This document shows, piece after piece, positions 12,012 to 52,148 of a DNA stretch of 64,000 nucleotides; positions within the stretch are counted from its first letter, which is position 1; every line of letters starts with the position of its first letter. Made by a program: the position numbers and the translations under genes. Below the pieces are notes generated by a model. It made no database searches. It was not told where the DNA came from and worked only from the letters and a program-made list of their open reading frames with translations. This DNA comes from Synergistaceae bacterium. GTDB taxonomy: Bacteria; Synergistota; Synergistia; Synergistales; Aminobacteriaceae. Where the stretch lies: positions 28,404 to 92,403 of the forward strand of contig JAFSUD010000065.1 in the NCBI GenBank assembly GCA_017445405.1, in the 5' to 3' direction.

Positions 12012-12045
12012 GTGCCACGCAAGGGGACAGAGAAGGAGACGGAGA

Positions 12046-14165: not shown

Positions 14166-14498
14166 ATGGATAACGAGACAACGATAGAGCGAGATGACAA
14201 AGGCCGTTTCGTGAAAGGGCAGTCTGGCAATCCGTCCGGCCGCCCGAGAGTACCTGAAGAGGTACGGAACGCCATCAAGGCAGCGTGTCCCGAAGCAGTG
14301 CAGAGGCTGATAGGGTTCATGAGCCACGAGAACGCGAAGATAGCGATGATGGCAATCACGGAGATACTGGACAGGGGCTACGGGAAGGCGACGCAAATGC
14401 AGGATGTGCAGATAGACGTGAACGGAGCGGCAGGATTGCGTGAGGAGATACGCAGTCTATTGCTGGAGCGCGAGGCGGAACGTGGAACTGACAGCTGA
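14166..14498 (+). CDS. Small terminase candidate (DUF5681-like)
   Basis: GRFVKGQSGNPSGRPR is the DUF5681 signature often found just upstream of TerL. It overlaps the terminase large subunit start. Confidence 0.6.
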   Translation: MDNETTIERDDKGRFVKGQSGNPSGRPRVPEEVRNAIKAACPEAVQRLIGFMSHENAKIAMMAITEILDRGYGKATQMQDVQIDVNGAAGLREEIRSLLLEREAERGTDS

Positions 14499-17885: not shown

Positions 17886-18106
17886 CAGATGTACTTCATG
17901 TGATAGCGGATGTACTGTTGCTGGTAATAGTAGTGTGGTACGACCGGCGAATAGAACAGCTAGAGGCTGATAGCGAGGAATATGAAGCCCATCTAAGGAC
18001 GTTAAGGCGGAGGCTGGACAGTCTTGCGGAACGAACGCCGCCTGTAGCTGGAGGAACGTCGGGCTGGCATGAATTGTGGTGTGCAGAGCCGACATGCGAG
18101 GCTTGA
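17882..18106 (+). CDS. Small N-terminally TM-anchored coiled-coil protein (74 aa)
   Basis: ATGA overlap with the portal stop. VIADVLLLVIVVWY hydrophobic helix, then a charged helix. Confidence 0.5.
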   Translation: MTDVLHVIADVLLLVIVVWYDRRIEQLEADSEEYEAHLRTLRRRLDSLAERTPPVAGGTSGWHELWCAEPTCEA

Positions 18107-18202
18107 TTAACAAGAGCGGGTAGTCTTAATTCAAAAATCGGCGAAAATTGAACTAAGACGAGCAAAAATACTCTCCATATTGCAATTTCAGGTAGATACC
18201 GA

Positions 18203-18230
18203 TTACAACATCATGGACTAAAGGTATACT
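18203..18230 (+). promoter_or_regulatory. Sigma70-like promoter of the Panacea moron
   Basis: TTACAA (18203-18208)-N16-TATACT (18225-18230), 25 nt upstream of the first Panacea gene. A 12-bp inverted repeat (18123-18134 / 18148-18159) lies just upstream. Confidence 0.35.
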
Positions 18231-18254
18231 TCAAAGAGAAAGGATGTGTGTAGT

Positions 18255-18689
18255 ATGCTGAGTATCTTTGATGTAGCCGCATATATTCTCGAACGTTGCG
18301 GGGCAATGTCAGCAATGAAGCTCCAAAAGTTGTGTTATTACTCTCAGGCATGGAGCTTGGTGTGGGATGATGAACCGCTGTTCCCCGAACCGATAGAAGC
18401 GTGGGTCAATGGACCTGTTATCCCAGTTCTTTACAGTAAGCATAAGGGTATCTTTAAGATTGAAGTCGGAGCAGTTGGAGGAAATCCCGATGCTTTAAGC
18501 GACCGCCAGAGAGAAACTGTTAATGCGGTATGCGATGCATATTCCCGCATGAATGCGCAGGAGTTAAGCGACCTTACGCACTCCGAGCAGCCATACATAA
18601 GAGCAAGGAGAGGGCTGGAACCTTTTGAGAGAGGGCATGAGGTTATCTCTTTGGCGGATATGTCAGAATACTATTCCAGTATCCAGTAA
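18255..18689 (+). CDS. Panacea/SocA (DUF4065) domain protein, copy 1
   Basis: FDVAAYILERCGAMSAMKLQKLCYYSQAWSLVWDDEPLFPEPIEAWVNGPV is the canonical DUF4065 N-terminal pattern. Confidence 0.85.
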   Translation: MLSIFDVAAYILERCGAMSAMKLQKLCYYSQAWSLVWDDEPLFPEPIEAWVNGPVIPVLYSKHKGIFKIEVGAVGGNPDALSDRQRETVNAVCDAYSRMNAQELSDLTHSEQPYIRARRGLEPFERGHEVISLADMSEYYSSIQ

Positions 18690-18799
18690 TGGGACGGGAC
18701 AAGGATATATGATTAAGGAATAATCATCGTAGTGAACGCTCAGTACGTAAGAGCGAAGTTGATTATTCTTCTCTCCCCGTATGCTGGCAGTTTTCCTTA

Positions 18800-19120
18800 A
18801 TGGATATGTCTGGTCCTTTTTCTTGTGCAGATATTACGCTCGACGAGTGGCGGCTTATCCTAGACAAGATGCGGCTGTGGGAGAAAATGACATGGCATGA
18901 AATAGCAGGCAGACGAGACCACGCTATCGAGGTTGATAATATCAGCCCTGAAGCGAAGAAAAGGTTAATCGAGCTTCAGCTTGATGATATTGACGAAGTG
19001 TTTTCTCTTCATATAGATGGCATTAAACGTTTGTTTGGCATAAGGGATAGACACATCTTCAAAGTGCTTTGGTGGGACAGAGAGCATAAAGTCTGCCCAT
19101 CGTATCTGAAGCATACGTGA
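18800..19120 (+). CDS. Unknown 106-aa protein between the two Panacea genes (candidate toxin/effector)
   Basis: ORF track. No domain recognised. C-terminal RLFGIRDRHIFKVLWWDREHKVCPS. No clear RBS at 18800, and an alternative start at 18887 (GGGAGAAA-ATG) is possible. Ends 14 nt before Panacea copy 2. Confidence 0.6.
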   Translation: MDMSGPFSCADITLDEWRLILDKMRLWEKMTWHEIAGRRDHAIEVDNISPEAKKRLIELQLDDIDEVFSLHIDGIKRLFGIRDRHIFKVLWWDREHKVCPSYLKHT

Positions 19121-19134
19121 GGACGGTGAATAGT

Positions 19135-19572
19135 ATGGCGACAGTATTCGACGTAGCGAAATATATTCTGAAACGTCAAGGAAGTATGTCATCATGGAAG
19201 TTGCAAAAGCTCTGTTACTATTCACAGGCATGGGCTTTGGCATGGACTGAACATGAGCTATTCCCAGAGGACTTCGAGGCATGGAGCAACGGGCCTGTTT
19301 GTTCTGTACTTTTCAGAGAGCACAAGGGGCTGTTTATGGTTAATGCCTCAGACATCACCAAAGGCACGCCAGAAAATCTTACCCACGATGAGCAAGATAC
19401 TGTAGACGTAGTATTGCGGGACTATGGCGGCATGTCTCCCTATGAGCTGCGCGAGCTTTCTCACAGTGAAGCTCCATACATAGAAGCCAGACATGGTTTG
19501 CCCGACGGAGCACGGTGCAGTTCAGTAATCTCGAAGGCATCAATGGGAGCTTTTTACCGAAGGAGGCCGTAA
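19135..19572 (+). CDS. Panacea/SocA (DUF4065) domain protein, copy 2, C-terminus replaced by IS insertion
   Basis: FDVAKYILKRQGSMSSWKLQKLCYYSQAWALAWTEHELFPEDFEAWSNGPV. After codon Tyr (19555-19557) the frame enters the IS left end and stops after RRRP. Confidence 0.8.
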   Translation: MATVFDVAKYILKRQGSMSSWKLQKLCYYSQAWALAWTEHELFPEDFEAWSNGPVCSVLFREHKGLFMVNASDITKGTPENLTHDEQDTVDVVLRDYGGMSPYELRELSHSEAPYIEARHGLPDGARCSSVISKASMGAFYRRRP

Positions 19573-19659: not shown

Positions 19660-20064
19660 ATGCAATATAAATCTAATCGTAATATCGTTTATTCCTGCAA
19701 ATATCATGTCGTTTGGTGTCCTAAGTATCGCCGTAAAGTCCTCGTCGAGGCAGTTGAGACTAGGCTTAGAGAACTCATTATCTCCATGTGTCGTGAGTCC
19801 TCCGTTGAACTACTTAAACTTGAGATTATGCCTGACCATGTTCACTTGCTCGTTGATGTTGACCCCCAGCTTGGTATCCATACTTTGATAAAGAAGCTCA
19901 AAGGCAGGACATCAAGGCTGCTCAGGCAGGAGTTCCCATACCTTAAAACAAAGTTGCCTACGTTATGGACGAACAGCTACTTTGTCTCAACCGTAGGCGG
20001 AGCACCGCTAAAGATAGTGAAGCAGTACATAGAAAGCCAAAAGACAAGTCAACGGCAGAAATGA
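19660..20064 (+). CDS. tnpA: IS200/IS605 Y1 (HUH) transposase TnpA
   Basis: YHVVWCPKYRRKVL, HUH motif DHVHLLV, and catalytic Tyr context WTNSYFVSTVG. Confidence 0.92.
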   Translation: MQYKSNRNIVYSCKYHVVWCPKYRRKVLVEAVETRLRELIISMCRESSVELLKLEIMPDHVHLLVDVDPQLGIHTLIKKLKGRTSRLLRQEFPYLKTKLPTLWTNSYFVSTVGGAPLKIVKQYIESQKTSQRQK

Positions 20065-21221
20065 AAACGTTTCGCTTCAAGCTATATCACTCTGACCATA
20101 ACAGTGCATTGATGAGACAGATTAACATCGCTGGCCTCATATATAACCATTGCATAGCCCTGCAAAAGAGATACTACCGGCTGTTCGGCAAGTACATCAA
20201 ACCCTATGCTCTGATGAAGCACCTGACGAAGCTGAAGCGCACAAAACGTTTTGCGTATATGCGCCAGCTTGGGTCGCAGGCAGTGCAGGATGTGGCAGAG
20301 AGAATAGACCGTGCCTATAACCTGTTCTGGTCGAACCTGAAACGCAAGGTTAAGTGCTCGCCGCCAAAGTTCAAGGCTGTCCGCCGCTACAAATCGTTCA
20401 CGCTGAAGCAAGCGGGCTGGTCTCTTGATGAGGCTTGTGGACGTATTCGCTTGGGCAAAAGGTGGTACGGATACTTTCAGAGCCGTCGTATAGAGGGCAA
20501 AGTCAAAACGGTAACGGTGAAGCGTGATGCAGTAGGAAATATATACGTCTATCTGTGCTGTGATACTCAGTCTGTGCCGGTCGAGACACGAACGGGTAAG
20601 AGCGTCGGTTTCGACTTCGGGCTGAAACAGTTTCTCACAGCGAGTGATGGACAAGATATAACTTCACCCGATTTCTTCAAGCAGAACGTAAGAACAATAA
20701 GAACCAAATGCCGCGCACTCTCCCGCAAACAGAAAGGATCTCATAGCCGAGAACGTGCCCGCCTTGAACTGGCTCGTGCCTACCGCAGAATGGAGAACCA
20801 GCGCAAAGATTTTCACTTCAAGCTGGCCCGGAAACTCTGTGAGGAGTATGCGTGTATCTGCCTAGAGACGCTGAACATCAAGGGGATGGCGCGTTTGTTG
20901 GGACAAAAGATACACTCTCTAGGCTTCTCGGAGTTCGTGAAGATTCTTGAGTACGAGGCATCAAAGTTCGGGACGCAGATAGTCTTTGTGCCGCCGTTCT
21001 TCCCGTCCTCTCAGCTGTGCAGTGCCTGCGGGTATCAGAATCCTGATGTGAAGAATCTCAAAGTTCGTGAGTGGACTTGTCCGCAGTGCCATACGCACCA
21101 CGAACGGGACAGGAACGCGGCCAAGAATATATTGATGGCAGGGGCATCAGCCATTAGCGGAGACGCAGTAAGCCCGGAGCAATCCGGCAGTGTTGTAGAT
21201 GCTAGAAGCCCCCGCCTTTAG
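20061..21221 (+). CDS. tnpB: TnpB RNA-guided endonuclease (OrfB_IS605 + zinc ribbon)
   Basis: ATGA overlap with tnpA. RuvC triad contexts VGFDFG, ICLETLN and ERDRNAAKNI. Zinc ribbon CSACG...CPQC. Confidence 0.92.
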   Translation: MKTFRFKLYHSDHNSALMRQINIAGLIYNHCIALQKRYYRLFGKYIKPYALMKHLTKLKRTKRFAYMRQLGSQAVQDVAERIDRAYNLFWSNLKRKVKCSPPKFKAVRRYKSFTLKQAGWSLDEACGRIRLGKRWYGYFQSRRIEGKVKTVTVKRDAVGNIYVYLCCDTQSVPVETRTGKSVGFDFGLKQFLTASDGQDITSPDFFKQNVRTIRTKCRALSRKQKGSHSRERARLELARAYRRMENQRKDFHFKLARKLCEEYACICLETLNIKGMARLLGQKIHSLGFSEFVKILEYEASKFGTQIVFVPPFFPSSQLCSACGYQNPDVKNLKVREWTCPQCHTHHERDRNAAKNILMAGASAISGDAVSPEQSGSVVDARSPRL

Positions 21222-23388: not shown

Positions 23389-24285
23389 ATGGCAAGTAAT
23401 ACTTACGCAGCAGTAGGAAACAAGGAAGATGTAAGCGACATCATAACGAACATAGCTCCGTATGATACGCCGCTGTACTCGAGGATAGGAAAGACGAGGG
23501 CAACACAGGTACTTCATGAATGGCTTGAAGATGAGTTAGGACAGCCTGTAGTGAACCAGCAGGATGAAGGCTACACTTACTTCACGCTGAATGTAGTACC
23601 GCGCACGAGACTGCACAACTACACGCAGATAATGCACAGGGGTATTCAGGTAACGGACAGCCAGGAGGCAGTACTTCATTATGGTATACGTTCAGAAATG
23701 GCGTACCAGATGGCAAAGACGCTCAAGGAGCTGGCGTTCGACTGTGAAAAGGCACTGATAGAGCAGGCTACCCAGTCTCCAGGTGCTATGGGTTCACCTA
23801 GAATATTCGGAGGCCTGCCGTTCTGGATAGTAACGAACGTGTTTGCTAACGGCGGCACTCCGAGACCTCTTACGTTCGACCTTGTAAACACTGCATTAGA
23901 GCAGACATGGACAGCCGGAGGAAAGCCCAGCATTCTGCTTGTCTCGCCGCGCAACAAGAGGGTAATCTCAACATTCACAGCCGGAAATACGAAGTACATG
24001 GACGGGAATAAGACGAACAAGCTGACGCAGATGATTAGCGTACTTGAGACAGATTTCGGAACGCTCCAGTGCATAACGGACAGGTTCATGCCTACAGATA
24101 ACAGAGAGATTTACGGCCTCAGCCCCGAATACATGAAGAAGGCGTTTCTGAGGAACTTCAAGACGGGCGACATTCCGAAGATAAACGACATGCAGCGCAG
24201 GATGATAAATGGAGAATGGACGCTTGAGATGAGAGCTGAGAAAGCACACTTCGTGATTAAGGACCTCGACGGTGTAGTGTATTAG
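23389..24285 (+). CDS. Major capsid protein (SU10/DUF5309-type HK97 fold)
   Basis: NKEDVSDIITNIAPYDTPLYSRIGKTRATQVLHEWLEDEL matches the DUF5309 N-terminal signature. Size and position fit. Confidence 0.85.
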   Translation: MASNTYAAVGNKEDVSDIITNIAPYDTPLYSRIGKTRATQVLHEWLEDELGQPVVNQQDEGYTYFTLNVVPRTRLHNYTQIMHRGIQVTDSQEAVLHYGIRSEMAYQMAKTLKELAFDCEKALIEQATQSPGAMGSPRIFGGLPFWIVTNVFANGGTPRPLTFDLVNTALEQTWTAGGKPSILLVSPRNKRVISTFTAGNTKYMDGNKTNKLTQMISVLETDFGTLQCITDRFMPTDNREIYGLSPEYMKKAFLRNFKTGDIPKINDMQRRMINGEWTLEMRAEKAHFVIKDLDGVVY

Positions 24286-32270: not shown

Positions 32271-33485
32271 ATGCCGACCAAGCAGATAACCAGCGTAGTA
32301 TGGAGCTGCGGAGCACTGCCCGCCGGTGTTAGCTTCAACACAGCGACGGGGACATTCAGCGGTACTCCAGAGGTTGAGGGCGAGTATATAGTGCCTGTAA
32401 CAGTAACGACCAACTACGGGACAGACATGAAGAATGTAACTCTGAGCGTAGCAGAGCCTGAGGTAGAGGAAGACGGAGAATACGGACCGGTGTACGCTAT
32501 AGGGACGAAAGCCAAAACATGGAGCGGGAATGCGGAGGCTGATGCTGACGGTTTCAGGAAGCTCAACATGCCTGACGCTTGCAGACTTGTGAAATTGTGT
32601 ACTGGTTTTGCGGCGAAAACAGACAGCCTCCAGTGGTACGTTTGCGGCACCACTATACATGGTTCTTCAAGCGCGCATCCTAAACCATATGGTGTTACTG
32701 GCCTTTCACCTTCTGTGCCTGTGCAATTTCCAGTTGAAGATGTTGTTGATATGTCATCAGGTTGGTATCGCGTTACAAGTTCAGTTTCCGGCTCTTACTA
32801 CTTTGCTTATCTCACTTCAGACCACGTATCTCATGTAGTTCTGCTAATGACCGCAAATTCTGCTATTACTAGTGTCGGTAATATAAAGAAATTGAGTAGC
32901 GGGTATGGTGCTGGTGTAATGACAATCGACAACACTGGAGCAACACGCTATGAGAATGCAACAGTGCGTGGGCAGCTAGCAGTGGGTGTATCACCTTCTC
33001 AGGTAAAAAAACTCTTAGCTACTGGTATGTACTCTAAACCTCGAATGCCTACATACATTACAACGTCCGGCTATCTTTATAAAGGGGCAGAACGCGTGGA
33101 TTTTGGCGGTGGGAAGATAAGAAACATTTGGGGATACCCGCATGGTGAAAAACAGCATCTGTTCGCTGTTACCGAAGATAATCAGCTCTATGCGATGGGA
33201 GAAAACACGTATCACAGTCTCGGACTTGATGGAACAGAAACAAGGACAGAGCTTGAATTAGTCGGAGAATGGGACGTTAAGACTATAGCTCAGGGAAGTA
33301 CAATGGACACGTTTTTGCTTACTAACGACGGTAAACTGTACCATTCAGGTGCGGCTATGTCAGTATACGACATATCGAAAATTGTTAGTACGCATGAGAG
33401 TTTTACACACATATACCCAGACAAAAGATTTATTGATATAGCAATGTATTCCAGCACTACATTAGTAGCTATACTGAAGGAGTGA
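32271..33485 (+). CDS. He_PIG-like domain + propeller-like C-terminal domain protein (404 aa)
   Basis: WSCGALPAGVSFNTATGTFSGTPEVEGEYIVPVTVTTNYG. The C-terminus has RCC1-like strings (NQLYAMGENTYHSLG, DGKLYHSGA). The C-terminal part has lower GC. Confidence 0.7.
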   Translation: MPTKQITSVVWSCGALPAGVSFNTATGTFSGTPEVEGEYIVPVTVTTNYGTDMKNVTLSVAEPEVEEDGEYGPVYAIGTKAKTWSGNAEADADGFRKLNMPDACRLVKLCTGFAAKTDSLQWYVCGTTIHGSSSAHPKPYGVTGLSPSVPVQFPVEDVVDMSSGWYRVTSSVSGSYYFAYLTSDHVSHVVLLMTANSAITSVGNIKKLSSGYGAGVMTIDNTGATRYENATVRGQLAVGVSPSQVKKLLATGMYSKPRMPTYITTSGYLYKGAERVDFGGGKIRNIWGYPHGEKQHLFAVTEDNQLYAMGENTYHSLGLDGTETRTELELVGEWDVKTIAQGSTMDTFLLTNDGKLYHSGAAMSVYDISKIVSTHESFTHIYPDKRFIDIAMYSSTTLVAILKE

Positions 33486-33489
33486 GACG

Positions 33490-33831
33490 ATGAGATACTT
33501 AGAATATGAGACAGCGACAGGACGGATAATCAGCGAGCTGACCAGCAGGGACAAACCCACCCCTTCCGAAGGGTTCTCTCTGCTTGAGATACCTGAAGAC
33601 GCAGATATAGACACCACGCTGTACGCGGTGAAGAACGGAGTACTGGTGAAGTGCTACGAAACAAACGAGGAGCGTCTGGAGCGAGAGAGGCTGAAGCGCG
33701 AGCATCTGGAGAAAGTGCGAATGAGGATGAAGGCGATGATGTACGAGGTGGGAATAGCACTCCTTGAAGAGGACGACAATGCAATAAAGCAACTCAGACA
33801 GGAATACCGAGAACTGAAGGCGTATCTGTGA
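33490..33831 (+). CDS. Tail-fibre assembly/chaperone-like protein (113 aa)
   Basis: MRYLEYETATGRIISEL... resembles the 31192 gene N-terminus. Tentative. Confidence 0.5.
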   Translation: MRYLEYETATGRIISELTSRDKPTPSEGFSLLEIPEDADIDTTLYAVKNGVLVKCYETNEERLERERLKREHLEKVRMRMKAMMYEVGIALLEEDDNAIKQLRQEYRELKAYL

Positions 33832-35906
33832 TGAGCTACCTAGATGAATTTCTCAAGAAATACCATGCACCAAGCGTTAATGACATCACAGTAGGCTTCT
33901 CTGGCATAGACCCATCACCGATAGTCAGCAGTAGTACGAGCCTCACTGAGGAGGAGATAACTCGGCTGATAGCTCTGTACCTCTCAAGGCTGAAGGTGCG
34001 GGTAGACAGCGGAAACGTTGTCCCTGATGCGGAAGAGCCCGAAGTGCCTGCGGATGTAGGGAGCGTCGTGCTCCCTGAAGAGATAGATATGACCTGCGAC
34101 GGCAAGTGCCGGAAGAATTGTTCATTCTACGACGGGCACTGGTTCAAGTGTTTTGACGAGCTCAAGACATGGCATGAAGCGAAGGCGGCCTGTGAAGCTC
34201 TGGGCGGGCATCTGGCGACATCAACCAGTGCGGAGAAGAACGAGTTTCTGGCTGACCTTGTGGGCAAAGCAGAAGCAACGCTGGGGGGCAACAGGCAGGT
34301 GTGGCTTGGAGCGACGGACGAAGAGCGGGAAGGTACGTGGAAGTGGGTAACCGGCGAAGACTGGAATTACACAAACTGGCGAACAGGACAGCCGGACAAT
34401 GCAGGCGGGAAGGAACATTATCTGCACTTCAACTGGGGCGAGAGAGGCAAATGGAATGATTATCTGCCCACTGTTAGGCTGGGTTATGTCTGCGAGTGTG
34501 ATGCAGTACTGCACGAAGCTCTGCCTGACCTTATGGGCGGCAACGCAAATGGACATTATCACCTGACACTGGATGAGCTCTCCAAGCTGTATATGCTGAT
34601 TAGGGAGCTGATACCTGCAGGGCGTGTAGTTATCCCGCCAAGCGGCACAGACGACCACGAGGAGCTGAACAGCCTTCTCGGAGGAGACAGCACAGGGCAC
34701 TATCATTTCAATGCTGACGAATGGCATAAGATTAAGACACTAATAACAACGACGTTCCCGCCGGGCAGTACTACGCCGGTGTTCCCGGGCAGTCCGACGA
34801 ATCCCAACATCCCTGACGTTCCTTTGCCAGATTACAGCGCGATGTTCGCTGGGAAAGCCCCACAGTGGGGTAAGAGCAGCATACCAGGCAGCTACAAGTC
34901 AGCGGCTGACGGGGGAAGGATGTACTCAGGGACAATAGCAATAACCTCCAGCCCCTATGTATTCCCTGCTCTTGTTATGCCGATGACGTATAAGAACAGT
35001 AGCACGAAGGTGAAGTTAATGTACACCACAGACCTCACCAGCTGGAAGTTGTTGCGAGACCTCACGATAAAGTCGCACGGTTCATCATTGGGAGAGCTAG
35101 TATACGGACATATCTCCCCGACATCAAAACTGAAAGCGAGATCTGAAGCCAAAGCGCACTTCATCTTCTACGCATCATATGCCGGAACAAGCAAAGCCGT
35201 GTATTACAAGAGTGCGGGCACGGGCAGCAGTATCCATAATCCAAGTACTAATGCTTCAGGATACTTAGCGGGCGACTATAGCCCTGATGGACGGAAATTT
35301 GTCCTCTCGAATGGCAACGGCAACATTGTTGTTGTCTCATACAAGAAAGATACTTCAACCGCTGTTATTCTTCAGGTAACGGACAAGGGCGCAACAATAG
35401 GAATGAGTGTAAACCCGGGATGCTTGAAGTACGGCAAGGGGATATATTGCGCGACCGGCCCGAACGGAACAGCGCAGAGTGCGGACGGAGCGAACTGGAC
35501 AGTGAACAACAATGCGCCCAAAGATATGATAGGTTTGGCGTACCGCGAGGACTGGACATACACTGACAGTAACGGGGCGAGCTTCACTGGAGCGTTTTTG
35601 GCGTGCAGTCGAGATACGAGAGTGTTCTACTACTCAGGGGACGGCAAGAACTGGACGCAGTGCAGTACGGTGAGGATACCGCTTGAGGGTGTGAGCGGAG
35701 TAGCCTATAGTCCCGAACGGCAGGAATATTGTGCAGTAGGGATGCCAGGCAATGTGGCTTGTATCAGCAAGGACTTGGTAACGTGGACACCGACATACGT
35801 ATCAGTGGCAGACATAACCGCATCTGATGTAGTGTGGGCATCATTTGCAGGCAAGTTTGTGCTGATGCCGAATAGTAGCAATGATTTCTACACATACCCC
35901 CAGTGA
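33831..35906 (+). CDS. Receptor-binding protein: adaptor motifs + C-type lectin domain (QPD) + BNR/Asp-box propeller
   Basis: ITVGFSGIDP. C-type lectin domain (CTLD) WHEAKAACEALGGHLATS...WLGATDEEREGTWKWVTGEDWNYTNWRTGQPDNAG...WNDY...YVCE (QPD at 34389-34397). Two GGDxxGHYH motifs. Asp-box strings SADGANWT and SGDGKNWT. Confidence 0.85.
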   Translation: MSYLDEFLKKYHAPSVNDITVGFSGIDPSPIVSSSTSLTEEEITRLIALYLSRLKVRVDSGNVVPDAEEPEVPADVGSVVLPEEIDMTCDGKCRKNCSFYDGHWFKCFDELKTWHEAKAACEALGGHLATSTSAEKNEFLADLVGKAEATLGGNRQVWLGATDEEREGTWKWVTGEDWNYTNWRTGQPDNAGGKEHYLHFNWGERGKWNDYLPTVRLGYVCECDAVLHEALPDLMGGNANGHYHLTLDELSKLYMLIRELIPAGRVVIPPSGTDDHEELNSLLGGDSTGHYHFNADEWHKIKTLITTTFPPGSTTPVFPGSPTNPNIPDVPLPDYSAMFAGKAPQWGKSSIPGSYKSAADGGRMYSGTIAITSSPYVFPALVMPMTYKNSSTKVKLMYTTDLTSWKLLRDLTIKSHGSSLGELVYGHISPTSKLKARSEAKAHFIFYASYAGTSKAVYYKSAGTGSSIHNPSTNASGYLAGDYSPDGRKFVLSNGNGNIVVVSYKKDTSTAVILQVTDKGATIGMSVNPGCLKYGKGIYCATGPNGTAQSADGANWTVNNNAPKDMIGLAYREDWTYTDSNGASFTGAFLACSRDTRVFYYSGDGKNWTQCSTVRIPLEGVSGVAYSPERQEYCAVGMPGNVACISKDLVTWTPTYVSVADITASDVVWASFAGKFVLMPNSSNDFYTYPQ

Positions 35907-35920
35907 GGACGTGATTTAGA

Positions 35921-36271
35921 ATGGCAAATGAATGCAAGACTGTCAAGATAAACCTGAAGACAGCCCCACACGAGAGGCTTGGCGGACTTCTCGGCGGGGA
36001 TGATGGAGGGCACTACCACCTCTCGGAGGAGGAGTACGGGCTAGTATCGGAGCTGGTTGAGGAACGTCGGCTAGAGAACGAAGCGGGCGGATGTTTTCAT
36101 AAACTCCAAGATGATGAACACGACAAGCTGTTAAAGCTGCTTGATATATTCTTCCCTGACGAAGAGGCAGATATAGCAGACACCTTCGCGACGCTGATGG
36201 ATGCGCGTATAGCGGCCTACATCAAGACGATAGACAGCGGAGAGATAACAGCTCCGAACGCAGGAGGCTAG
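35921..36271 (+). CDS. Short adaptor-motif protein (116 aa)
   Basis: PHERLGGLLGGDDGGHYHLSEEEY. Paralogue of the 37712 gene (shared GGCFHKL...LLDIFFPDE). Confidence 0.65.
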   Translation: MANECKTVKINLKTAPHERLGGLLGGDDGGHYHLSEEEYGLVSELVEERRLENEAGGCFHKLQDDEHDKLLKLLDIFFPDEEADIADTFATLMDARIAAYIKTIDSGEITAPNAGG

Positions 36272-36273
36272 CG

Positions 36274-37707
36274 ATGACATTCACAGATAACTTCGGAAAT
36301 GAGTATTTAGACACCTACATACCTGACAAGATAGTAGGCTTCATAGGGATAGACCCTGACATGAAGAACGGTGGCGGCGGCGGAAGCGACATAGATAACC
36401 ACGAAGAACTGTCCACGCTTCTTGGAGGTGATGTTTCTGGGCACTGGCATTTGACGTTTGAGGAGCTGGATAAGTTGAAGGCACTGCTGAGCTTAACCTT
36501 CCCGCCTGGCAGCACAACACCTGTTTTCCCAAGCGGGCCGGTTACTCCAAGCGAGCCAGATGACCCCACACCTGCTGATGACCCAGACCTTGAGACAGAC
36601 GCGGGATTGCCGCCAAACGAACCTCCAGCATGGGGAACAGCGAAGTTAAAGTCCGATAAGTACACAGCATACGAAGACGCAGGAGCTATGTATTACGGGC
36701 AGATAGTCCAGACCTCAAAGCCTTACTTCCCCGAAGCCCTTGTAGTCCCAATGATAAACAACGGGAGCACGAAGAACATAGATTGCGAATGGACAACAGA
36801 TTTAGCTACATGGAAAGCATTTGACAGCTCCATAGCGATAAAGACATACGGCAAGACATTAGCACAGTGCTTGTTCATAGACTGGAACATAGGGACATCG
36901 ATAAGCAATGACAGCTACCGCAAGATTGCCTGCATAACCTATCCGTCAACCTCAACATACGTACGGTGGAAGTACAAAGGCGGATGGGGAAATATGGGAC
37001 TGGCACAGGCGAAGTCATTAGTTGCTATGGCATACTCGTCATCTCTGGGCAGAGCAATATTCATTACGGACACAGGGACAGTATCAATAGTGGACAGAAA
37101 AACCAGCAAGTCAACAATGAGCTTCAAGAAGGTAACTACATCCTACAACTGCAGCATAGGCTCGGTAAATCATGGTTGCGCAATATGGCTTGACGCGTAT
37201 AACTGCTTCTGCGTAACAGGTGCAGACGGTGTAGCAACAAGCCAGCTTGGCGAGGTGTGGACTAAAAAAACTGGCGACGGAGTGAACATTCCGAAAGACT
37301 TGCGCGGCCTGACATACCGCTCAGACATCGTATATACCGACACGAACGACCAAGAATACACAGGGTGCGTATTCGGCTGGAGTGGAGACGATAAGACATT
37401 CTGGAAGTCGTACGACGGGCAGAACTGGATGCGGCACAACACGAAGCCCATTCCCCTCCAAGAGGTAAAGTCTGTAGCTTACAGTCCAGAGCATGGCATA
37501 TACTGTGCCGTAGGAATACCTAATACAGCAGAGGAAGGGATGTTCGCCTACCTCAGCAAGGACTTGACGGGCTGGAGGAAGTCGAAAGTTACGAGCGATA
37601 GCAATACGGCAGAGAGCGTAATCTGGATGCCGAGCACGAGTAAGTTTGTGCTCTTGCCGACAAGCGGAAGCAAACTATACACATTTAACCCTGCAGATTG
37701 GAGATAG
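36274..37707 (+). CDS. Receptor-binding protein: adaptor N-terminus + BNR/Asp-box propeller (477 aa)
   Basis: MTFTDNFGNEYLDTYIPDKIVGFIGIDPDMKNGGGGG, NHEELSTLLGGDVSGHWHLT, and a C-terminal propeller paralogous to the 33831 and 38647 genes (SYDGQNWM). Confidence 0.8.
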   Translation: MTFTDNFGNEYLDTYIPDKIVGFIGIDPDMKNGGGGGSDIDNHEELSTLLGGDVSGHWHLTFEELDKLKALLSLTFPPGSTTPVFPSGPVTPSEPDDPTPADDPDLETDAGLPPNEPPAWGTAKLKSDKYTAYEDAGAMYYGQIVQTSKPYFPEALVVPMINNGSTKNIDCEWTTDLATWKAFDSSIAIKTYGKTLAQCLFIDWNIGTSISNDSYRKIACITYPSTSTYVRWKYKGGWGNMGLAQAKSLVAMAYSSSLGRAIFITDTGTVSIVDRKTSKSTMSFKKVTTSYNCSIGSVNHGCAIWLDAYNCFCVTGADGVATSQLGEVWTKKTGDGVNIPKDLRGLTYRSDIVYTDTNDQEYTGCVFGWSGDDKTFWKSYDGQNWMRHNTKPIPLQEVKSVAYSPEHGIYCAVGIPNTAEEGMFAYLSKDLTGWRKSKVTSDSNTAESVIWMPSTSKFVLLPTSGSKLYTFNPADWR

Positions 37708-37711
37708 AGAG

Positions 37712-38167
37712 ATGGCAGAAGAATACAGTGCGGTAACGATAAACATAAAGACAGCTCCACATGAAGAGCTTGACGGGCTTCAGGGAGGAGACGACGACGG
37801 GCACTATCACCTGACAGAGGAAGAGTATTCGCTGATGTCGTCTGTGCTCGGTGAACGCCGTGAAGAAGATGAAAGCGGCGGATGTTTCCACAAGCTGGAG
37901 GACGAACAGTACGAGAAACTGCTTGAGCTGCTTGATGTGTTTTTCCCTGACGAAAATTCAATGGCAGAGGACACGCTGGCAGAGCTAATAGATGAGCGAG
38001 CGGGCACAGAAGACCATGAACAGCTCACCCATCTTTTGGGCGGGGAAGATACGGGACATTACCACGTAACAGCGGCTCAGTACCAGATACTCCAAAACTT
38101 AGATGAGTACATCGCAGAACGGGTAGCAGCTGTTCTTAGGGAAATGTCGGTTGATGTTCACCCATAA
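37712..38167 (+). CDS. Short double adaptor-motif protein (151 aa)
   Basis: Start moved to MAEEYSAV. PHEELDGLQGGDDDGHYHLT and DHEQLTHLLGGEDTGHYHVT. Confidence 0.65.
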   Translation: MAEEYSAVTINIKTAPHEELDGLQGGDDDGHYHLTEEEYSLMSSVLGERREEDESGGCFHKLEDEQYEKLLELLDVFFPDENSMAEDTLAELIDERAGTEDHEQLTHLLGGEDTGHYHVTAAQYQILQNLDEYIAERVAAVLREMSVDVHP

Positions 38168-38182
38168 GCAGGAGGCTAGGGC

Positions 38183-38647
38183 ATGAGCTTCAGAGACAGC
38201 TTCGGGAATGAGTACTTAGACACTTGTATTCCCGATAAGATAGTTGGCTTCACAGGAATAGACCCCAGTCTCATACCAAACATCGACACCGAAGATATTG
38301 TCGGTGGTGAAGATGAGCACCCAGTTGCATGGCATGACAGCCTTGAAGAAATCTTAGGCGGGGATGATGACGGATGCTACCATTTGACGCATGACGAGTA
38401 CGAAAAATTAGTACTGCTCCTGAATGAACGCTATGGAGAGAATGATGATGACGAGGGAGATGCACCAGAAGACAATAACCGAACTCTGACAGCAGAAGAG
38501 TATGCTATGCTATCAAGGCTGTTGAGTGAAGTTTACGGCGAAGAAGGCGACGACCCAGTCTTTCCCCTCAACTTGGCCGATGAAGAGCTAACGGAGCTGA
38601 TTGATAATAGGATAGCTGAGTATCTCAGCAGCACAGGAGTCCACTGA
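38183..38647 (+). CDS. Short adaptor-motif protein (154 aa)
   Basis: MSFRDSFGNEYLDTCIPDKIVGFTGIDPS and WHDSLEEILGGDDDGCYHLT. Acidic. Confidence 0.65.
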   Translation: MSFRDSFGNEYLDTCIPDKIVGFTGIDPSLIPNIDTEDIVGGEDEHPVAWHDSLEEILGGDDDGCYHLTHDEYEKLVLLLNERYGENDDDEGDAPEDNNRTLTAEEYAMLSRLLSEVYGEEGDDPVFPLNLADEELTELIDNRIAEYLSSTGVH

Positions 38648-41168
38648 TGCCGTATATAACTAGTGATTATCCTGAAATGATGAGCTACGAAGGCGGAGCG
38701 GCAATGCTCTGCAGCGGAATGGGGTTCGGCGAAAGATGCGCTTATTTGCCTGACAGCTCCAGCCGCATCAAGATAACCAACTCCACCGGCATGTTTAATC
38801 TGTCTCCGTCAAAAGCCTGCGAGTTTGAAGTCTTCATCAAGCCGACAGACCGTACAGCCCAATACACAGAGCAGGGTTACAGCTTCTACGACGGGCACAC
38901 GTTCAAATGCTTCACCACACTCATGACGTGGGCAGAGGCAAAGGCGGCCTGTGAGGAGATAGGCGGACATTTAGCCACAAGCACTAACTCGGCGAAGAAT
39001 GCCTTTCTGGCCAGCCTAACCAATGCTAATGCGTGGCTTGGAGCGACAGATGAAGAAAGCGAGGGTACGTGGAAATGGATTACGGGCGAAGATTGGAGCT
39101 ACACCAATTGGAACGTCGGCCAGCCTGACAATGCAGGACAGAATGAACACTACCTGAACATCAATTTCGGTTCGGCGGGAAAATGGAATGACTGGACACC
39201 AACTAAAACTCTGCACTTCATTTGCGAATGGGATTACGATTTCAGGGACAACAGCAGCATCATCAGGCTCGGAGATTTAGTGCTTGCTTTGACTGCCGAG
39301 AACCACCTCAAGCTGAGCTCTTCTACATGGAGCATAGAGAAAAACATACAGCAGGATTTAGCGGCTCAGGGGTATAAATTCTATGACGGGCACTCCTTCA
39401 AGTTCTTCAACGACAAAGTCTCGTGGACAACAGCAAAGGCAGCCTGCGAGGCTCTAGGGGGACATCTTGCTACCAGCACCAGCGCAGAGAAAAATTCGTT
39501 CTTAACCGCTATCACGACTGAGTACTCATGGCTCGGAGCAACAGACGAGGCACAGGAAGGCGTTTGGCAGTGGGTTACAGGCGAGGACTGGAACTATAAC
39601 AACTGGAACAGTAACGAGCCTAACAATAGCGGCGGTGCTGAGCACTATTTGCAGCTCAACTATGGAAGGGTAGGAGGCTGGAACGATTACTCCAACTATC
39701 AGCAACTCGGCTATATCTGTGAATGGGACGAAGATTTCAACAAGTGCTTAAAGCCTGAGCAGTGGTATCGCATCATTCTCAGAGTAAGTGATGAGTGTGT
39801 AACAGTAATTCTCGACGGTGTTGAAGTAATCAGGGAGAACATTACGGGTTCAGAGGAGATAAAGCCTGAGTGTCTAGAGTTAGGCGGGTTCAGCGGTTAC
39901 ATGGATGGTTTCTCGTATAGGAGGAGTAGCGATTCAGGAGGTTTTGAAGTGTATCATGAAGAGTTAATCGGCATATTGGGCGGTGATAATAACGGGCACT
40001 ATCACTTCACTAGCGAAGAATGGGCAAAAATGAGGAAGCTGATAGCAGCAGCTTATCCAGATGGAGCAGAAGACCCTGTAATAGGCGGAGGGAATGTTTC
40101 TAACCCAGACTTACCAGACGACACGATGATAGATTACGGTCCGGCTGGTATGTTGCCTAGTAGTCAGCCGCCTGCGTGGGGTATTGCCGCTCTGCCCAAG
40201 AAATACAGTCTGTGGGGTAACCCTAGCAAAATGTATTACGGGTGTATCGACAAGAAAGGGTATTTCACTAATGAAGTCCTTGTCGTCCCCATGAGGTACG
40301 GGAACTCCACCAAAAGTCAGGATCTCATGTTCACTAATGACTTGCAGACCTGGACTAGACATCGCTCGCTGAGGACAAGTACTTATGGGACGGGTTTCAC
40401 TGAATATGCCTATGCCTCGATGGATAATAAGTGCAGTCTCTATACCGTCGGCCTCCAGAGTAATAAAAAGCAGATATACTATCATTACACCTTCACAGCG
40501 AGCAAAGGAGGAGGTATCTCCAGTTTCGCAACGAAGATTGCGGGGTTTTCTGATACGCAGTCTTTCATCGCCTGTGCTCATTCGCCGGAGATTAACCTTA
40601 CTATCTTTGTTGCTGATAACGGCGCAGTGATTCGCAGAAGAGCAGGTTTATGGCAACGAAAAGAAGGCATACACATAGGTATGAATGTCAATCCCGGCTG
40701 TGCAGCTTGGGACAGCTACCACAAGATATTCTGTGTAACTGGAGCAAACGCCTCAGCAGTTAGTTCGAACGGAGTGGACTGGACTGTATCGGAAAATGCA
40801 CCTCAGCTTCTCTATGGGCTCGAGTACAGAGATGATTTGAAGGTATTTATAGCTTGGAGCTTGGAGGACAGACTTTTCTACGTCTCTGCGGACGGTATCA
40901 ACTGGACGAGGTACAGTCAGACAGCTATACCGCTTGCTAATGCCAGTGCAGTAGCTTATTGTCCTGACTTCGGGTGGTATTGTGCAATAGGCAGCAGAAG
41001 CCAGTACGCATACTTCAGCAAAAACCTCAAGACTGGACAGGCACGAAAGTCAGTAATGCAGACTTGAATATGTCCGACGTAATCTGGATGCCGAGCACCA
41101 AGAAATTCGTATTAACAACACAGGGCGGAGAAAGCCTTTATGTCTTTGACCCTGCAGATTGGCAGTGA
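38647..41168 (+). pseudogene. Receptor-binding protein with two C-type lectin domains (QPD, EPN), LamG-like domain and BNR propeller, frameshifted near the 3' end
   Basis: CTLD signatures around QPD (39121-39129) and EPN (39616-39624). Frame 1 stops at 41067, but the -1 frame from the A5 run (41020-41024) encodes the conserved paralogue C-terminus ...DWTGTKVSNADLNMSDVIWMPSTKKFVLTTQGGESLYVFDPADWQ*. Confidence 0.8.
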
Positions 41169-41178
41169 GGAGAATAAA

Positions 41179-41466
41179 ATGAGCTTTAGAGACAACTTCG
41201 GGAACGAGTATTTAGACACCTACATACCAGATAAGATAGTGGGTTTCATAGGCATAGACCCCGATATGAAGAACGGCGGAGGGGGCGGAAGCGGAACGGA
41301 TGACCACGAACAGCTGACGAACCTTCTCGGAGGAGATGCTACGGGACATTGGCACGTAAATGCAGAGCAGTATCACTGTCTCTTAGACATAATGAGCGGA
41401 AGGCTGAACAGCATAATAGATGCCCGGGTGGCGAAGTACATAACCGACAACAACATAGGCGGCTAA
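41179..41466 (+). CDS. Short adaptor-motif protein (95 aa)
   Basis: MSFRDNFGNEYLDTYIPDKIVGFIGIDPDMKNGGGGGSG and DHEQLTNLLGGDATGHWHV. The 5' DNA is closely similar to that of 36274. Confidence 0.65.
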   Translation: MSFRDNFGNEYLDTYIPDKIVGFIGIDPDMKNGGGGGSGTDDHEQLTNLLGGDATGHWHVNAEQYHCLLDIMSGRLNSIIDARVAKYITDNNIGG

Positions 41467-48807: not shown

Positions 48808-49077
48808 ATGCTAATCAAGGCAAGAAAAGTCGGGAACAGCTTTGCATTAACAATCCCTTCGTCTATTGTTGAGACTATGGATTTGGCGGACGGGCAGGAA
48901 ATGCTCGTTGACTATAACCCGTACAGTAGGACACTGTCGTACCGTCTTAACAGAGTTAGCGAAATCAACTGGGGAGAGTTCGTGTCGAAAGACGGAGAAG
49001 ACATCAGGGATGGAATGTCGCCGGAGGATTATGTCAGAAGTCTGAGGGATAACGACCGTGAAGAAATCGTTTTTTGA
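48808..49077 (+). CDS. AbrB/MazE/SpoVT-type antitoxin (VapB-like)
   Basis: LIKARKVGNSFALTIPSSIVETMDLADGQEMLV is the SpoVT-AbrB swapped-hairpin pattern. Overlaps the PIN gene start. Confidence 0.8.
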   Translation: MLIKARKVGNSFALTIPSSIVETMDLADGQEMLVDYNPYSRTLSYRLNRVSEINWGEFVSKDGEDIRDGMSPEDYVRSLRDNDREEIVF

Positions 49078-49474
49078 TACGTCGATTTTTATCTACGCGT
49101 TAGAGAACAACTCCACAGCGGCCCAGAACTTATTTCAGCGGGCACTTACTGAGGGGACAGTCGGCACATCCACCATTACAATCATGGAGTATGCTACGGG
49201 TTGCCTGAAGTACGGTAAGATAGAGCGTCTCAATAACTTTAGGTATTTCTTGAAATCCCTGATGTTCGAGGTTGTGTCAGTGGATGATGTTATTGCTCTG
49301 AAAGCTGCGGAGATACGTGCTAACTATCAGTTCTTCAAGCCTATGGATGCTCTACAGCTCGCAACAGCTTTTGTTGCCAGAGCTGATGTGTTCTATACGA
49401 ATGATAAGCAGCTTTTACAGTATCAAGATATTGCGGTAGAGCTACTCCCAAACGTTGAAGATGCCCAATCCTGA
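49058..49474 (+). CDS. vapC: PIN-domain toxin VapC
   Basis: GTG start. FFDTSIFIYALE (first acidic residue), MEYATG, MDALQLATA and FYTNDKQL fit the four conserved PIN acidic positions. Confidence 0.8.
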   Translation: MKKSFFDTSIFIYALENNSTAAQNLFQRALTEGTVGTSTITIMEYATGCLKYGKIERLNNFRYFLKSLMFEVVSVDDVIALKAAEIRANYQFFKPMDALQLATAFVARADVFYTNDKQLLQYQDIAVELLPNVEDAQS

Positions 49475-50660: not shown

Positions 50661-52148
50661 ATGGCAAACTTTTGGCCAGGCATTACAAAAACACGAAATC
50701 AAGCAAACAACAACAGCTTAACCGACCTACTAGGTAATAACACAGGGAATAGCAACAATATAATCAATAATAATCCAGCCCCTGTGAACCCACAGACAAG
50801 CCCACAGCAGAGAGACATTTTCACTCAGCGTGTTGGAGACGGGACATTCATAAGTGTACCTAAACGCGACCCAGAGCCAGAAGCATTGACAGATTTGCGC
50901 AAACAGCTCAGCGATATAGCAAAGCAGGGACTGGGTAATTTCAATAATGATAACTGGCAACAGGCACAGAACCTCACAAACCAAGCGTTGGCTCAACAGG
51001 GCAAACTTCTTGGACAGAGCAGTGATATTGTTCAGCAAATATTGAACATTGCACAGAACGGTACACTTCCCAGCAACCTCATCAATGCAATGAATGCGAG
51101 CGTAAATCAGGGCTTGCAGTCCTCGATGGGCAACATGCTGAATAACCTCGCCAACAGAGGAATACTGAACAGCTCGGTAACTACAGCGGGAACTAATCAG
51201 CTCTCACAGGCGGCAGCAGATGCCTTCAACCGCAACTACCTCACGGCATACCAGTCCGCGCTTGGTGGTTTAGGACAGGGCTTGCAGAGTACTCTATCGG
51301 CACTAAGTGCGGCAGGAAGTGCGCCATCGCAGGCATACAACAGCATAGGTGCTGGACTGACAATACCATATAACTTCTGGAAGGACTGGCAGAACTTCTA
51401 TCAGAGCGATGACCCTTACGAGAGCATTTACGTACAAGACACTCCTAAGCAGAAATCGGGATGCCTGACTGGCGATACGCTGGTAACTCTTGAGGATGGG
51501 CATGAAATCCCTGTCCGCGAGCTTAAGGATAATGACAGACTGAGAGTTTGGGACTTTGAGAGTGGTCGTATCTCTTCTGCTCCGCTGGCTGCTTTCGTCA
51601 AACGTACCAACGCTGACGGATTCGACGTTATACGCGTGGAGTTCGAGGACGGTTCTAGCGTAGGTGTTGTTCTCGGGCATCTGTTCTTTGACATCACGCT
51701 CGGGAAGTTTGTTGAAATTAACGCAGATAATCAGGACTTCGTGGGGCAGGAGTTCGCAAAGGTGATTGACGGAAAGGCTGTGCCTGTGAAGGTTACGGCA
51801 ATCCACACGGACGGCAGAGAGAAAGAGTGCTATGCTCCGCAGGCTGAGGGAAGCTGGAACTACATCACCGAAGGTTTCATCACGGGCAACGAGGGACAGC
51901 TGGCAATATGCAACATGTTCTACTTCGACGGCTTGCGCTGGGACGCAAAGAAGAGAGCTAAAGATTTAGCACAGTTCGGGCTTCTGGACTATGACGTGTT
52001 CAATGGCATTATCTCCAAGAGAGTATTCGACGCTAATCACGCTGAGGAACTCTCTGTAGCGTTCGGCAAGGGGTTAGCAGACTGTGAGGAGTTCAGAGCT
52101 TACCTGAAGAAGTATTCGGATGATATATTCGGCAAGGAGGGCGCGTAA
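50661..52148 (+). CDS. Q/N-rich virion protein with internal Hint (bacterial intein-like) domain
   Basis: SGCLTGDTLVTLEDGHEIPV (Cys codon 51462-51464) ... VLGHLFF ... GFITGN (Asn codon 51888-51890). The N-terminal 260 aa are Q/N/L-rich. Confidence 0.75.
   Translation: MANFWPGITKTRNQANNNSLTDLLGNNTGNSNNIINNNPAPVNPQTSPQQRDIFTQRVGDGTFISVPKRDPEPEALTDLRKQLSDIAKQGLGNFNNDNWQQAQNLTNQALAQQGKLLGQSSDIVQQILNIAQNGTLPSNLINAMNASVNQGLQSSMGNMLNNLANRGILNSSVTTAGTNQLSQAAADAFNRNYLTAYQSALGGLGQGLQSTLSALSAAGSAPSQAYNSIGAGLTIPYNFWKDWQNFYQSDDPYESIYVQDTPKQKSGCLTGDTLVTLEDGHEIPVRELKDNDRLRVWDFESGRISSAPLAAFVKRTNADGFDVIRVEFEDGSSVGVVLGHLFFDITLGKFVEINADNQDFVGQEFAKVIDGKAVPVKVTAIHTDGREKECYAPQAEGSWNYITEGFITGNEGQLAICNMFYFDGLRWDAKKRAKDLAQFGLLDYDVFNGIISKRVFDANHAEELSVAFGKGLADCEEFRAYLKKYSDDIFGKEGA

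Follow-up and report, generated by a model that had tools for sequence, protein, structure and literature searches.

Fibre genes and their domains

The stretch analysed here, called the window below, comprises 64,000 nucleotides of contig JAFSUD010000065.1 (positions 28,404 to 92,403) and holds the structural region of a rumen phage whose contig is about 108 kb long. It contains a group of fibre genes, all on the forward strand, in which C-type lectin domains (CTLDs) occur. The window is a phage structural module and the CTLD genes lie in its fibre part, as seen from synteny and from adaptor and GHYH modules common to other fibre genes. Three open reading frames (ORFs) are central. ORF A (33828/33831-35906, 692/691 aa) consists, in this order, of an N-terminal adaptor with the motif GFSGIDP, a CTLD, two GHYH modules and a propeller. 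ORF B (36274-37707, 477 aa) is the CTLD-less paralogue and carries a GFIGIDP adaptor, one GHWH module and the common propeller (aa 113-477). ORF C (38647-41067, 806 aa as called, with an out-of-frame tail to 41168) has a LamG-like sandwich, two CTLDs, one GHYH module and a propeller. Four small ORFs accompany them: one of 116 aa with only a GHYH module (35921-36271), one of 151 aa from its ATG with two GHYH modules (37712-38167), one of 154 aa (38183-38647) with the N-terminal adaptor FRDSFGNEYLDT...GFTGIDP and a stop codon that overlaps the start of ORF C, and one of 108 aa with only an adaptor N-terminus and one GHWH module (41140-41466).

CTLD 1 occupies 34116-34505 (aa 97-226 of ORF A), where Pfam Lectin_C (PF00059) is matched as one domain with E=3.4e-18 and 66.8 bits. 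CTLD 2 (38875-39237, aa 77-197) and CTLD 3 (39370-39732, aa 242-362) lie in ORF C, for which the same family reports two domains with E=3.1e-35 and 121.6 bits. The gathering cutoff of 22.6 bits is exceeded by all of them, which answers the HMMER check proposed when these domains were originally predicted from motifs. The sugar-specificity triplet is QPD at 34389-34397 in CTLD 1 (codons CAGCCGGAC, which translate as QPD), QPD at 39121-39129 in CTLD 2 and EPN at 39616-39624 in CTLD 3. Each triplet is followed at canonical spacing by EHYL, WND and (I/V)CE(W/C)D; in CTLD 1 these are EHYL at 34413-34424, WND at 34452-34460 and VCECD at 34488-34502, and WND is found at 39184-39192 and 39679-39687 in CTLDs 2 and 3. 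A phmmer search against all PDB sequences gave 173-179 matches for the window CTLDs, with E values from 1e-11 to 1e-29 to MBP-A/C, SP-D, langerin, DC-SIGN, mincle, CD23 and the mannose-receptor family. Because these scores are far above chance, the three domains are confirmed as genuine Lectin_C CTLDs, and the original prediction of three full CTLDs with QPD, QPD and EPN triplets was right in place and, on translation, exact in coordinates. It was also correct in separating them from the CLec fold of the variable proteins of diversity-generating retroelements (DGRs): the window CTLDs match PF00059 and not Mtd-type CLec, and the QPD/EPN, Glu and WND ligands are intact.

The N-terminal motif '..GFxGIDP' heads five ORFs, namely the one at 31654, A, B and the small ORFs at 38183 and 41140. 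In its longer form it reads FRDNFGNEYLDTYIPDKIVGFxGIDP or ..ITVGFSGIDP, at 31720, 33894, 36337, 38246 and 41242. Three of these five ORFs are short (101-154 aa), contain only the adaptor motif and GHYH modules, and may be separate adaptor or docking subunits. ORF C itself lacks an adaptor. One is encoded by the 154-aa ORF that ends at the start codon of C, and this ORF is probably a separate adaptor for C. The GHYH module is about 40 aa long ('HE(E/Q)LxxLLGGDxxGHYHLTxxExxKL..(F/Y)P' followed by a helix) and is present in 11 copies between 28475 and 41430, for example at 34536, 34680, 35993, 36424, 37784, 38039, 39979 and 41329. The two copies of ORF A ('HExLxxLLGGxxxGHYH', each then a helix; shaft or adaptor modules) span 34536-34790. 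Adaptor and GHYH motifs occur only on the forward strand in the window, and proteins that have CTLDs and proteins that lack them begin with the same adaptor and GHYH modules. For the GHYH module neither a Pfam match nor a relative of solved structure was found, and PHROGs gave only weak matches to families of unknown function. In a protein from a goat-rumen Synergistaceae metagenome-assembled genome (MAG; locus L084), 11 tandem copies stand between a GFSGIDP N-terminus and the propeller (L084 267-2732), which suggests that the module is a fibre-shaft repeat. Its HxH motif is a possible metal-binding site.

The C-terminal domain of about 355 aa is common to ORFs A, B and C and extends from 34839 to 35906 (aa 338-692) in ORF A. 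Its AlphaFold2 (AF2) model is all-beta, with predicted local distance difference test scores (pLDDT) of 85-95 and a strand pattern of about seven four-stranded blades. Asp-box-like hairpins are found in ORF A at aa 400, 551, 603 and 647, in the turns between strands 3 and 4 of four blades. The S.DG.NW strings are SADGANW and SGDGKNW in A, SYDGQNW in B, and SADGINW and SSNGVDW in C; the degenerate strings TTDLTSW and SKDLVTW also lie in strand 3-4 turns. A Foldseek search against the PDB returned seven-bladed WD40-type propellers (TMt 0.55-0.66), with no glycosidase among the top 50 fold matches. Matches in BFVD were to predicted propellers of phage structural proteins, among them one named 'BNR repeat domain protein' and one named 'baseplate wedge initiator'. 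Pfam gave no BNR, BNR_2, sialidase or glycoside hydrolase (GH) family at E<=0.1.

A profile made from 15 members of the propeller family and searched against 1.84 billion representatives found 66 clusters at E<=1e-30 and, at weaker scores, a long series of large proteins with many matched stretches. Members of this series (E about 1e-20 to 1e-25) are proteins of about 830 aa with Sipho_tail, PSII_BNR and DUF6242, and in one of them (P0195) the PSII_BNR/DUF6242 regions overlap the profile-matched region. Nearer members of the family elsewhere have Mtd_N, collagen or He_PIG N-termini. Assignment of the C-terminal domain to the BNR/Asp-box type of propeller is supported by the modelled fold, the position of the Asp boxes and this transitive homology. 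The BNR/Asp-box propellers of the original prediction therefore stand as far as the S.DG.NW strings and a remote PSII_BNR relation go; a direct Pfam BNR match was not obtained. The family to which the window's propeller belongs is small (about 66 clusters at that threshold) and unannotated. With ORF B alone as query, genome scans for the propeller family produced 13 pattern matches, none of which was confirmed.

The arrangement of the lectin domains differs between the two genes. They had been described as sitting between adaptor and propeller, which is so for ORF A and not for ORF C, where the CTLDs lie inside the LamG-like domain and the adaptor is on the upstream ORF. There the two CTLDs are inserted in loops of a beta-sandwich (38647-39970). 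Without the CTLDs, ORF C is colinear over both splice points with an uninterrupted paralogue in L084 (E=3e-14). Another paralogue in L084 carries one CTLD, of the EPN type, at the first of the two insertion points, so that paralogues with zero, one or two insertions are represented (window 38647-39970; L084 2722-4014 and 4720-5790). The sandwich of ORF C is an example of domain-in-domain cassette insertion. Against Pfam, ORF C with the CTLDs spliced out gave only a sub-threshold match to the ConA clan (3keto-disac_hyd, E=0.0023), and its homologues gave weak, sub-threshold Laminin_G_3 matches. These matches and the colinear uninterrupted paralogue weakly suggest the label LamG.

Pairwise identity among the three window CTLDs is 57-69%, and each is equally close or closer to domains in fibres of other phages. 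CTLD 1, for example, shares 88% identity with the QPD copy in P0005 and 75% with the EPN copy there. Among the 24 CTLDs of propeller-bearing fibre proteins, 10 have EPN and 10 have QPD. A recent triplication, on which the original prediction had left the decision to phylogeny, is ruled out by these identities and by the closer relatives in other phages; the three CTLDs look like old, shuffled cassettes.

ORF C is interrupted near its end. Its stop codon is at 41067, and the conserved end of the propeller, DWTGTKVSNADLNMSDVIWMPSTKKFVLTTQGGESLYVFDPADWQ, is read on in the -1 frame until the stop codon at 41166-41168, which explains the end coordinate 41168 given originally for the region. Comparison with homologues, such as P0002 with SKDLKDWRASKVSN, fits the loss of one G near 41031 (AAG GAC -> AAGAC). 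This deletion moves the last ~46 aa of the propeller out of frame and removes its last blade; the displaced reading frame extends into the beginning of the following ORF (41140). The same 806-aa product is present in an ENA assembly, in an independent Logan assembly of SRR12529378 and in a different XIEF21 sample. Exact copies of ORF C were found on 10 contigs, and eight of these are 50-200 kb long. Since the same truncated product is found in independent assemblies and samples, the 1-nt deletion is real in the population. Programmed frameshifting was considered and set aside, there being no canonical slippery heptamer at the break; a mutation is favoured, since a single G deletion fits.

Calcium site, disulfides and prokaryotic relatives

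The calcium sites were examined by alignment to a rat MBP-A sequence whose numbering agrees with published ligand numbers. In this alignment the five ligands of Ca2+ site 2 (E/Q185, N/D187, E193, N205 and D206) are kept in all three copies, at a spacing identical to that in MBP-A. At Ca2+ site 1, D161, E165 and N188 are kept and D194 is replaced by His. Some functional carbohydrate-recognition domains (CRDs) lack Ca2+ site 1. The cysteine pair C1-C4, which joins helix alpha1 to strand beta5 (AAC-E ... (I/V)-C-E), is present in all three copies, and the corresponding disulfide is predicted for the window CTLDs. The long-loop disulfide C2-C3 (Cys195-Cys209 in MBP-A) is absent: position 195 is Tyr in each copy (EHYL) and there is no Cys downstream of WND in any of them.

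The QPD copies read QPDNAGG and have neither the Trp (Trp189) nor the Gly-rich loop. In animal CRDs the Trp and the Gly-rich loop strengthen galactose binding, as is known from work on switching the specificity of MBP-A. Because both are absent here, the triplet by itself is a weak predictor of monosaccharide preference, and the galactose-type and mannose-type specificities that had been read from QPD and EPN are weak predictions.

For CTLD 3, the EPN copy, an AF2 model was built from a 47-sequence domain alignment (pLDDT 96.6; predicted template-modelling score, pTM, 0.90), in which the long loop has a pLDDT >95. Foldseek superimposed it on sugar-binding CRDs with template-modelling (TM) scores of 0.83-0.92 and root-mean-square deviations of 1.2-2.0 A over 119-130 columns, long loop included; the matches include the aggrecan CLD, SRCL, mincle, CL-K1, MBP, SP-D, DC-SIGN, langerin and MGL. 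From this superposition and the conservation of the site-2 ligands, the CTLD double-loop fold and the primary sugar site are canonical, and the disulfide pattern and site 1 are not. The structure prediction that had been proposed as a check turned out in favour of the domains, the modelled fold being canonical including the long loop.

The nearest relatives of these domains are prokaryotic. The window CTLDs share 40-55% identity with prokaryotic CTLDs versus 22-33% with animal CRDs. A full-length search found hundreds of prokaryotic PF00059 proteins, in which the partners are dockerin, ricin-B, CHAP, InlB-repeat, LRR, S8 peptidase or kinase domains. From 124 prokaryotic proteins of this search, 285 near-complete CTLDs were taken as a set of relatives. 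Their triplet is EPN in 134, QPD in 59 and EPS in 23; WND is present in 196 of the 285 and Glu193 in 186. The C1-C4 cysteines are found in about 95% of them. Position 195 is occupied by Tyr in 177 and by Phe in 37 of the set; just 5 have Cys there. When one genome per prokaryotic species was scanned with a single peptide pattern, at least 590 CTLD stretches were confirmed. Taxa among the listed matches are Clostridia, Oscillospiraceae, Lachnospiraceae, Synergistaceae, Planctomycetota and Verrucomicrobiota, and further Proteobacteria, Desulfobacterota, Flavobacteriales and Asgard archaea.

Because identities of 40-55% and the loss of the second disulfide are common to these relatives, the window CTLDs are members of a large, essentially unstudied prokaryotic subfamily that has kept the Ca2+/sugar site and lost the second disulfide. 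The term 'animal-type' used in the original prediction does not fit, given the prokaryotic nearest relatives and the absent C2-C3 disulfide. Contrary to a common assumption, bacteria and archaea have an abundance of CTLDs of this so-called animal type whose sugar sites are intact, so that an animal-to-phage transfer need not be invoked. Canonical PF00059-type CTLDs with 39-49% identity are also encoded in several Asgard archaeal MAGs of Hodarchaeota, Promethearchaeota and Hermodarchaeota (L096, L103, L132, L134, L138, L151 and L159). Such domains in Asgard archaea may be relevant to how the C-type lectins of eukaryotes arose.

Proposed role and rival explanations

In view of these features we suggest, with moderate confidence, that prokaryote-type CTLD cassettes on modular side fibres bind host surface glycans in a Ca2+-dependent manner. 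The fibre proteins would be assembled from a common kit consisting of the GFxGIDP docking motif, GHYH shaft modules, optional CTLDs and a propeller tip. The GFxGIDP N-terminus would dock on the virion or on an adaptor, and the seven-bladed propeller would form the distal tip. In the CTLDs, the site-2 Ca2+ would contact vicinal hydroxyls of a terminal sugar, as in MBP or DC-SIGN, and several CTLD copies on oligomeric fibres could provide avid, reversible, Ca2+-dependent attachment. The ligand would be a glycan of the host-cell surface, i.e. lipopolysaccharide, capsule or S-layer glycan, and QPD and EPN versions may bias the sugar preference. The propeller could serve as a second, non-catalytic binding domain. 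The analysis itself shows the identity and fold of the domains, the conserved ligands, the behaviour of the CTLDs as cassettes, the setting in a fibre module and the remote BNR affinity of the propeller; Ca2+ and sugar binding, a bacterial-host ligand, the oligomeric state and the position on the virion are what we infer in this proposal.

Three other explanations are ranked below host-glycan binding. According to the original prediction the fibres combine lectin and glycosidase: the CTLDs would dock on a polysaccharide that the Asp-box propeller cleaves, in a depolymerase or sialidase-like reaction comparable to that of the K1F endosialidase tailspike. The Asp-box hairpins in two to four blades and the tie to BNR-type propellers in the profile search agree with this, and a conserved Y-R-(E/D)-D motif (R236 and D238 in the family alignment) could be a functional site. 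Endosialidase tailspikes pair a propeller with a lectin-like domain. However, the propeller is modelled as a single domain of seven blades, as opposed to the six-bladed propeller of sialidases (GH33) or the tandem seven-bladed propellers of GH74, and the glycosidase reading was dropped in view of the missing BNR_2, sialidase and GH matches in Pfam at E<=0.1. The generic WD40-type propellers that make up the top 50 PDB fold matches also speak against catalysis, as do the invariant columns of the family alignment, which are mostly structural Gly, Trp, Pro or Cys. The propeller's remote sequence relatives in phage Dit proteins match DUF6242 and PSII_BNR, the latter being the type of Ycf48, an assembly factor and not an enzyme; catalytic residues were not identified in the window's propeller. 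The enzymatic half of the proposed design is thus not borne out, and cleavage by the propeller is improbable. Rather than recognising the host, the CTLDs could attach to glycans of the animal, for instance those of rumen or gut mucins and of the epithelial glycocalyx, and keep the phage in mucus, as in 'bacteriophage adherence to mucus'. All close homologues come from animal-gut or rumen metagenomes, and the fibres, which have a different tip domain in any case, carry CTLDs as optional cassettes. EPN sites bind mannose, N-acetylglucosamine and fucose, QPD sites bind galactose and N-acetylgalactosamine, and these sugars are abundant on mucins. Retention in mucus is nevertheless unlikely, as the CTLD subfamily is common in free-living and environmental bacteria, archaea and aquatic phages, where animal glycans are lacking, and the fusions in gut Firmicutes (dockerin, CHAP, InlB-repeat, S8) fit general glycan-binding modules.

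A further explanation is that the CTLDs are structural or protein-binding modules that do not bind sugars, or that the whole cluster is decaying and plays little role in infection. Many CTLDs in nature bind proteins. The fixed 1-nt deletion that removes the last propeller blade of ORF C would be in line with decay, and the absence of the long-loop disulfide and of the site-1 Asp194 with a loss of lectin function. On the other hand, the five site-2 ligands are kept in three of three copies, the long loop is modelled at pLDDT >95, and ORFs A and B are intact. In the set of 285 relatives, EPN or QPD is found in 193, WND in 196 and Glu193 in 186. Conservation of this kind is to be expected only under selection on the Ca2+/sugar site, which makes this explanation quite unlikely.

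Several observations do weigh against host-glycan binding by these fibres. ORF C is frameshifted in all assemblies seen and may be non-functional or impaired. Since the deletion removes the last blade of ORF C, the originally proposed presence of three lectins of different specificities on one particle is uncertain. The replacement of D194 by His and the missing long-loop disulfide could make loop stability and Ca2+ affinity different from those of animal CRDs, and the QPD copies lack the Trp and Gly-rich loop behind strong galactose binding in animal lectins. The place of the products of A and C on the virion is deduced from synteny alone, and the host assignment, discussed below, depends on metagenomic binning.

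Phage receptor-binding proteins with sugar-binding modules are already known, as is the C-type lectin domain itself, and NCBI has an automatic annotation of the domain. A fibre with canonical Ca2+-site CTLDs in both QPD and EPN versions is apparently undescribed. Tentatively, these could be the first canonical Ca2+-dependent C-type lectins that act as phage receptor-binding modules: collectin-like multivalent fibres in which EPN (Man/GlcNAc-type) and QPD (Gal-type) cassettes are swapped between scaffolds to retarget host glycans or to anchor to mucus, beside an undescribed metal-binding GHYH shaft repeat. If sugar binding is true, the EPN/QPD triplet would offer a simple sequence read-out for the glycan receptors of uncultivated rumen and gut phages, the domains would be small, disulfide-poor and bacterially expressible C-type lectins for glycan tools, and the fibres would exemplify cassette-style retargeting.

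Phage setting and known systems

NCBI places ORFs A and C in a Synergistaceae MAG according to the full-length protein search, in which the exact protein of ORF C is 'MAG: hypothetical protein IJS28_07465 [Synergistaceae bacterium]'. CTLD loci also occur in two goat-rumen Synergistaceae MAGs, L084 (RGIG3696) and L126 (RGIG1612), and the one of them that was inspected, L084, has the same parts kit as the window fibres. Because of this binning and the CTLD loci in further rumen MAGs of the family, the host is probably a member of the Synergistaceae.

The structural region contains genes for the large terminase TerL (14440-15933), the portal (15906-17885) and the major head protein (23389-24285). 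More than 10 genes with Mtd_N, Phage_fiber_rpt, He_PIG, collagen or Laminin_G_3 domains follow at 28.8-48.8 kb, and a lysis cassette of M15 peptidase and holin is found at 49.7-50.6 kb. The window also encodes a virion protein of 1021 aa with SLT and M23 domains. PHROGs gave no match for ORFs A, B and C or for the small adaptor ORFs scanned. Between portal and head genes lies a transposase gene (19965-21221; phrog_506, E=1e-96), and the GC content dips at 18-20 kb; the gene probably belongs to an insertion sequence that has entered the structural module. At 32271-33485, a fibre protein with He_PIG and an RCC1-repeat propeller is encoded. A PIN-domain gene (49058-49474) stands between fibre and lysis genes, a Hint-domain protein is encoded at 50661-52148, and two ParB-like proteins at 7732-9105 and 11911-13071, one of them fused to a DNA methyltransferase. 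An ORF of >2,290 aa (57124-64000, forward strand) is cut off by the window's edge; its product is presumably a giant protein that is part of the virion or is injected. A related phage (L001) has a 1305-aa ART-PolyVal/LPD23 protein at a similar position. No tRNAs were found in the window. The ORFs scanned included no integrase gene, as would fit a phage that is lytic or is maintained like a plasmid.

Two related contigs from other animal-gut metagenomes, L001 (90 kb) and L002 (48 kb), contain fibre modules that are syntenic with that of the window and have a CTLD-propeller gene at the same place. Among deposited phages, a megablast search with the 7.2-kb region gave no match, nor did tblastn with the propeller. 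With the CTLD, tblastn against 50,697 deposited phage genomes matched only Flavobacterium phage vB_FspM_immuto (4 records), and none of these genomes had a canonical CTLD in a fibre gene. In IMG/VR at least 147 CTLD-encoding contigs were confirmed with the CTLD profile. The best 80 of these 147 (L004-L083) all encode immuto-type proteins of about 327 aa with a signal peptide, an EPN CTLD and a dockerin-like tail; since they represent a different family, the IMG/VR matches were rejected as evidence for fibre CTLDs. In the open-access texts searched, neither canonical Lectin_C domains in phage fibres nor a prokaryotic CTLD subfamily was described, and the phage C-type lectin literature found there concerns the Ca2+-independent DGR CLec only.

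Among deposited phages, only immuto thus encodes a comparable PF00059 domain (46% identity, EPN). The immuto protein has 332 aa and adjoins replication genes and a cohesin-domain protein (L003, MW353176.1 10527-13422), with which its CTLD/dockerin could form a phage-encoded cohesin-dockerin lectin pair. Unlike the window proteins, it has a signal peptide and a dockerin-like tail, is encoded outside the fibre module and lacks propeller, adaptor and GHYH modules.

DGR CLec proteins, such as Mtd of BPP-1 and those of the Bacteroides 'Hankyphage', resemble the window system in the Mtd_N domains on neighbouring fibre genes. The related phage L002 encodes an RVT_1 reverse transcriptase just downstream of its Mtd_N fibre genes (16073-19152), which is probably part of a DGR. 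No reverse transcriptase of the RVT family was found among the window ORFs >=300 aa scanned; template and variable repeats (TR/VR) were not searched. In contrast to the window CTLDs, the CLec proteins are Ca2+-independent and diversified by the retroelement, and they have neither EPN/QPD/WND nor a PF00059 match. For the propeller, the known counterparts are the Ycf48/PSII_BNR propellers in siphophage Dit proteins (Sipho_tail), which are remote sequence relatives with Asp-box hairpins and are also phage tail parts. They differ in location, the window propeller being at the C-terminus of a fibre and not inside Dit, and the window propeller is silent in Pfam.

The prokaryotic CTLD proteins resemble the window domains in the EPN/QPD/WND pattern and in having lost the second disulfide, 214 of 285 having Tyr or Phe at position 195. 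Their dockerin, ricin-B, CHAP, InlB-repeat, LRR, S8 and kinase partners contrast with the fibre adaptors, GHYH modules and propeller tip of the window. The animal CRDs, i.e. those of the collectins (MBP-A/C, SP-D, CL-K1) and of DC-SIGN, langerin, mincle, SRCL and MGL, agree with the window CTLDs in PF00059, the fold (TM 0.83-0.92), the WxGxTD and WxW..G..W.Y.NW core, the spacing of the site-2 ligands and the C1-C4 disulfide. They differ in that identity is only 22-33%, Cys195-Cys209 is missing in the window, the site-1 Asp194 is His, and the QPD copies are without Trp189 and the Gly-rich loop. With the collectins the fibres would share in principle the display of lectin heads on an oligomeric stalk, which in the collectins is a collagen and neck region, whereas the window CTLDs are placed inside phage fibre proteins.

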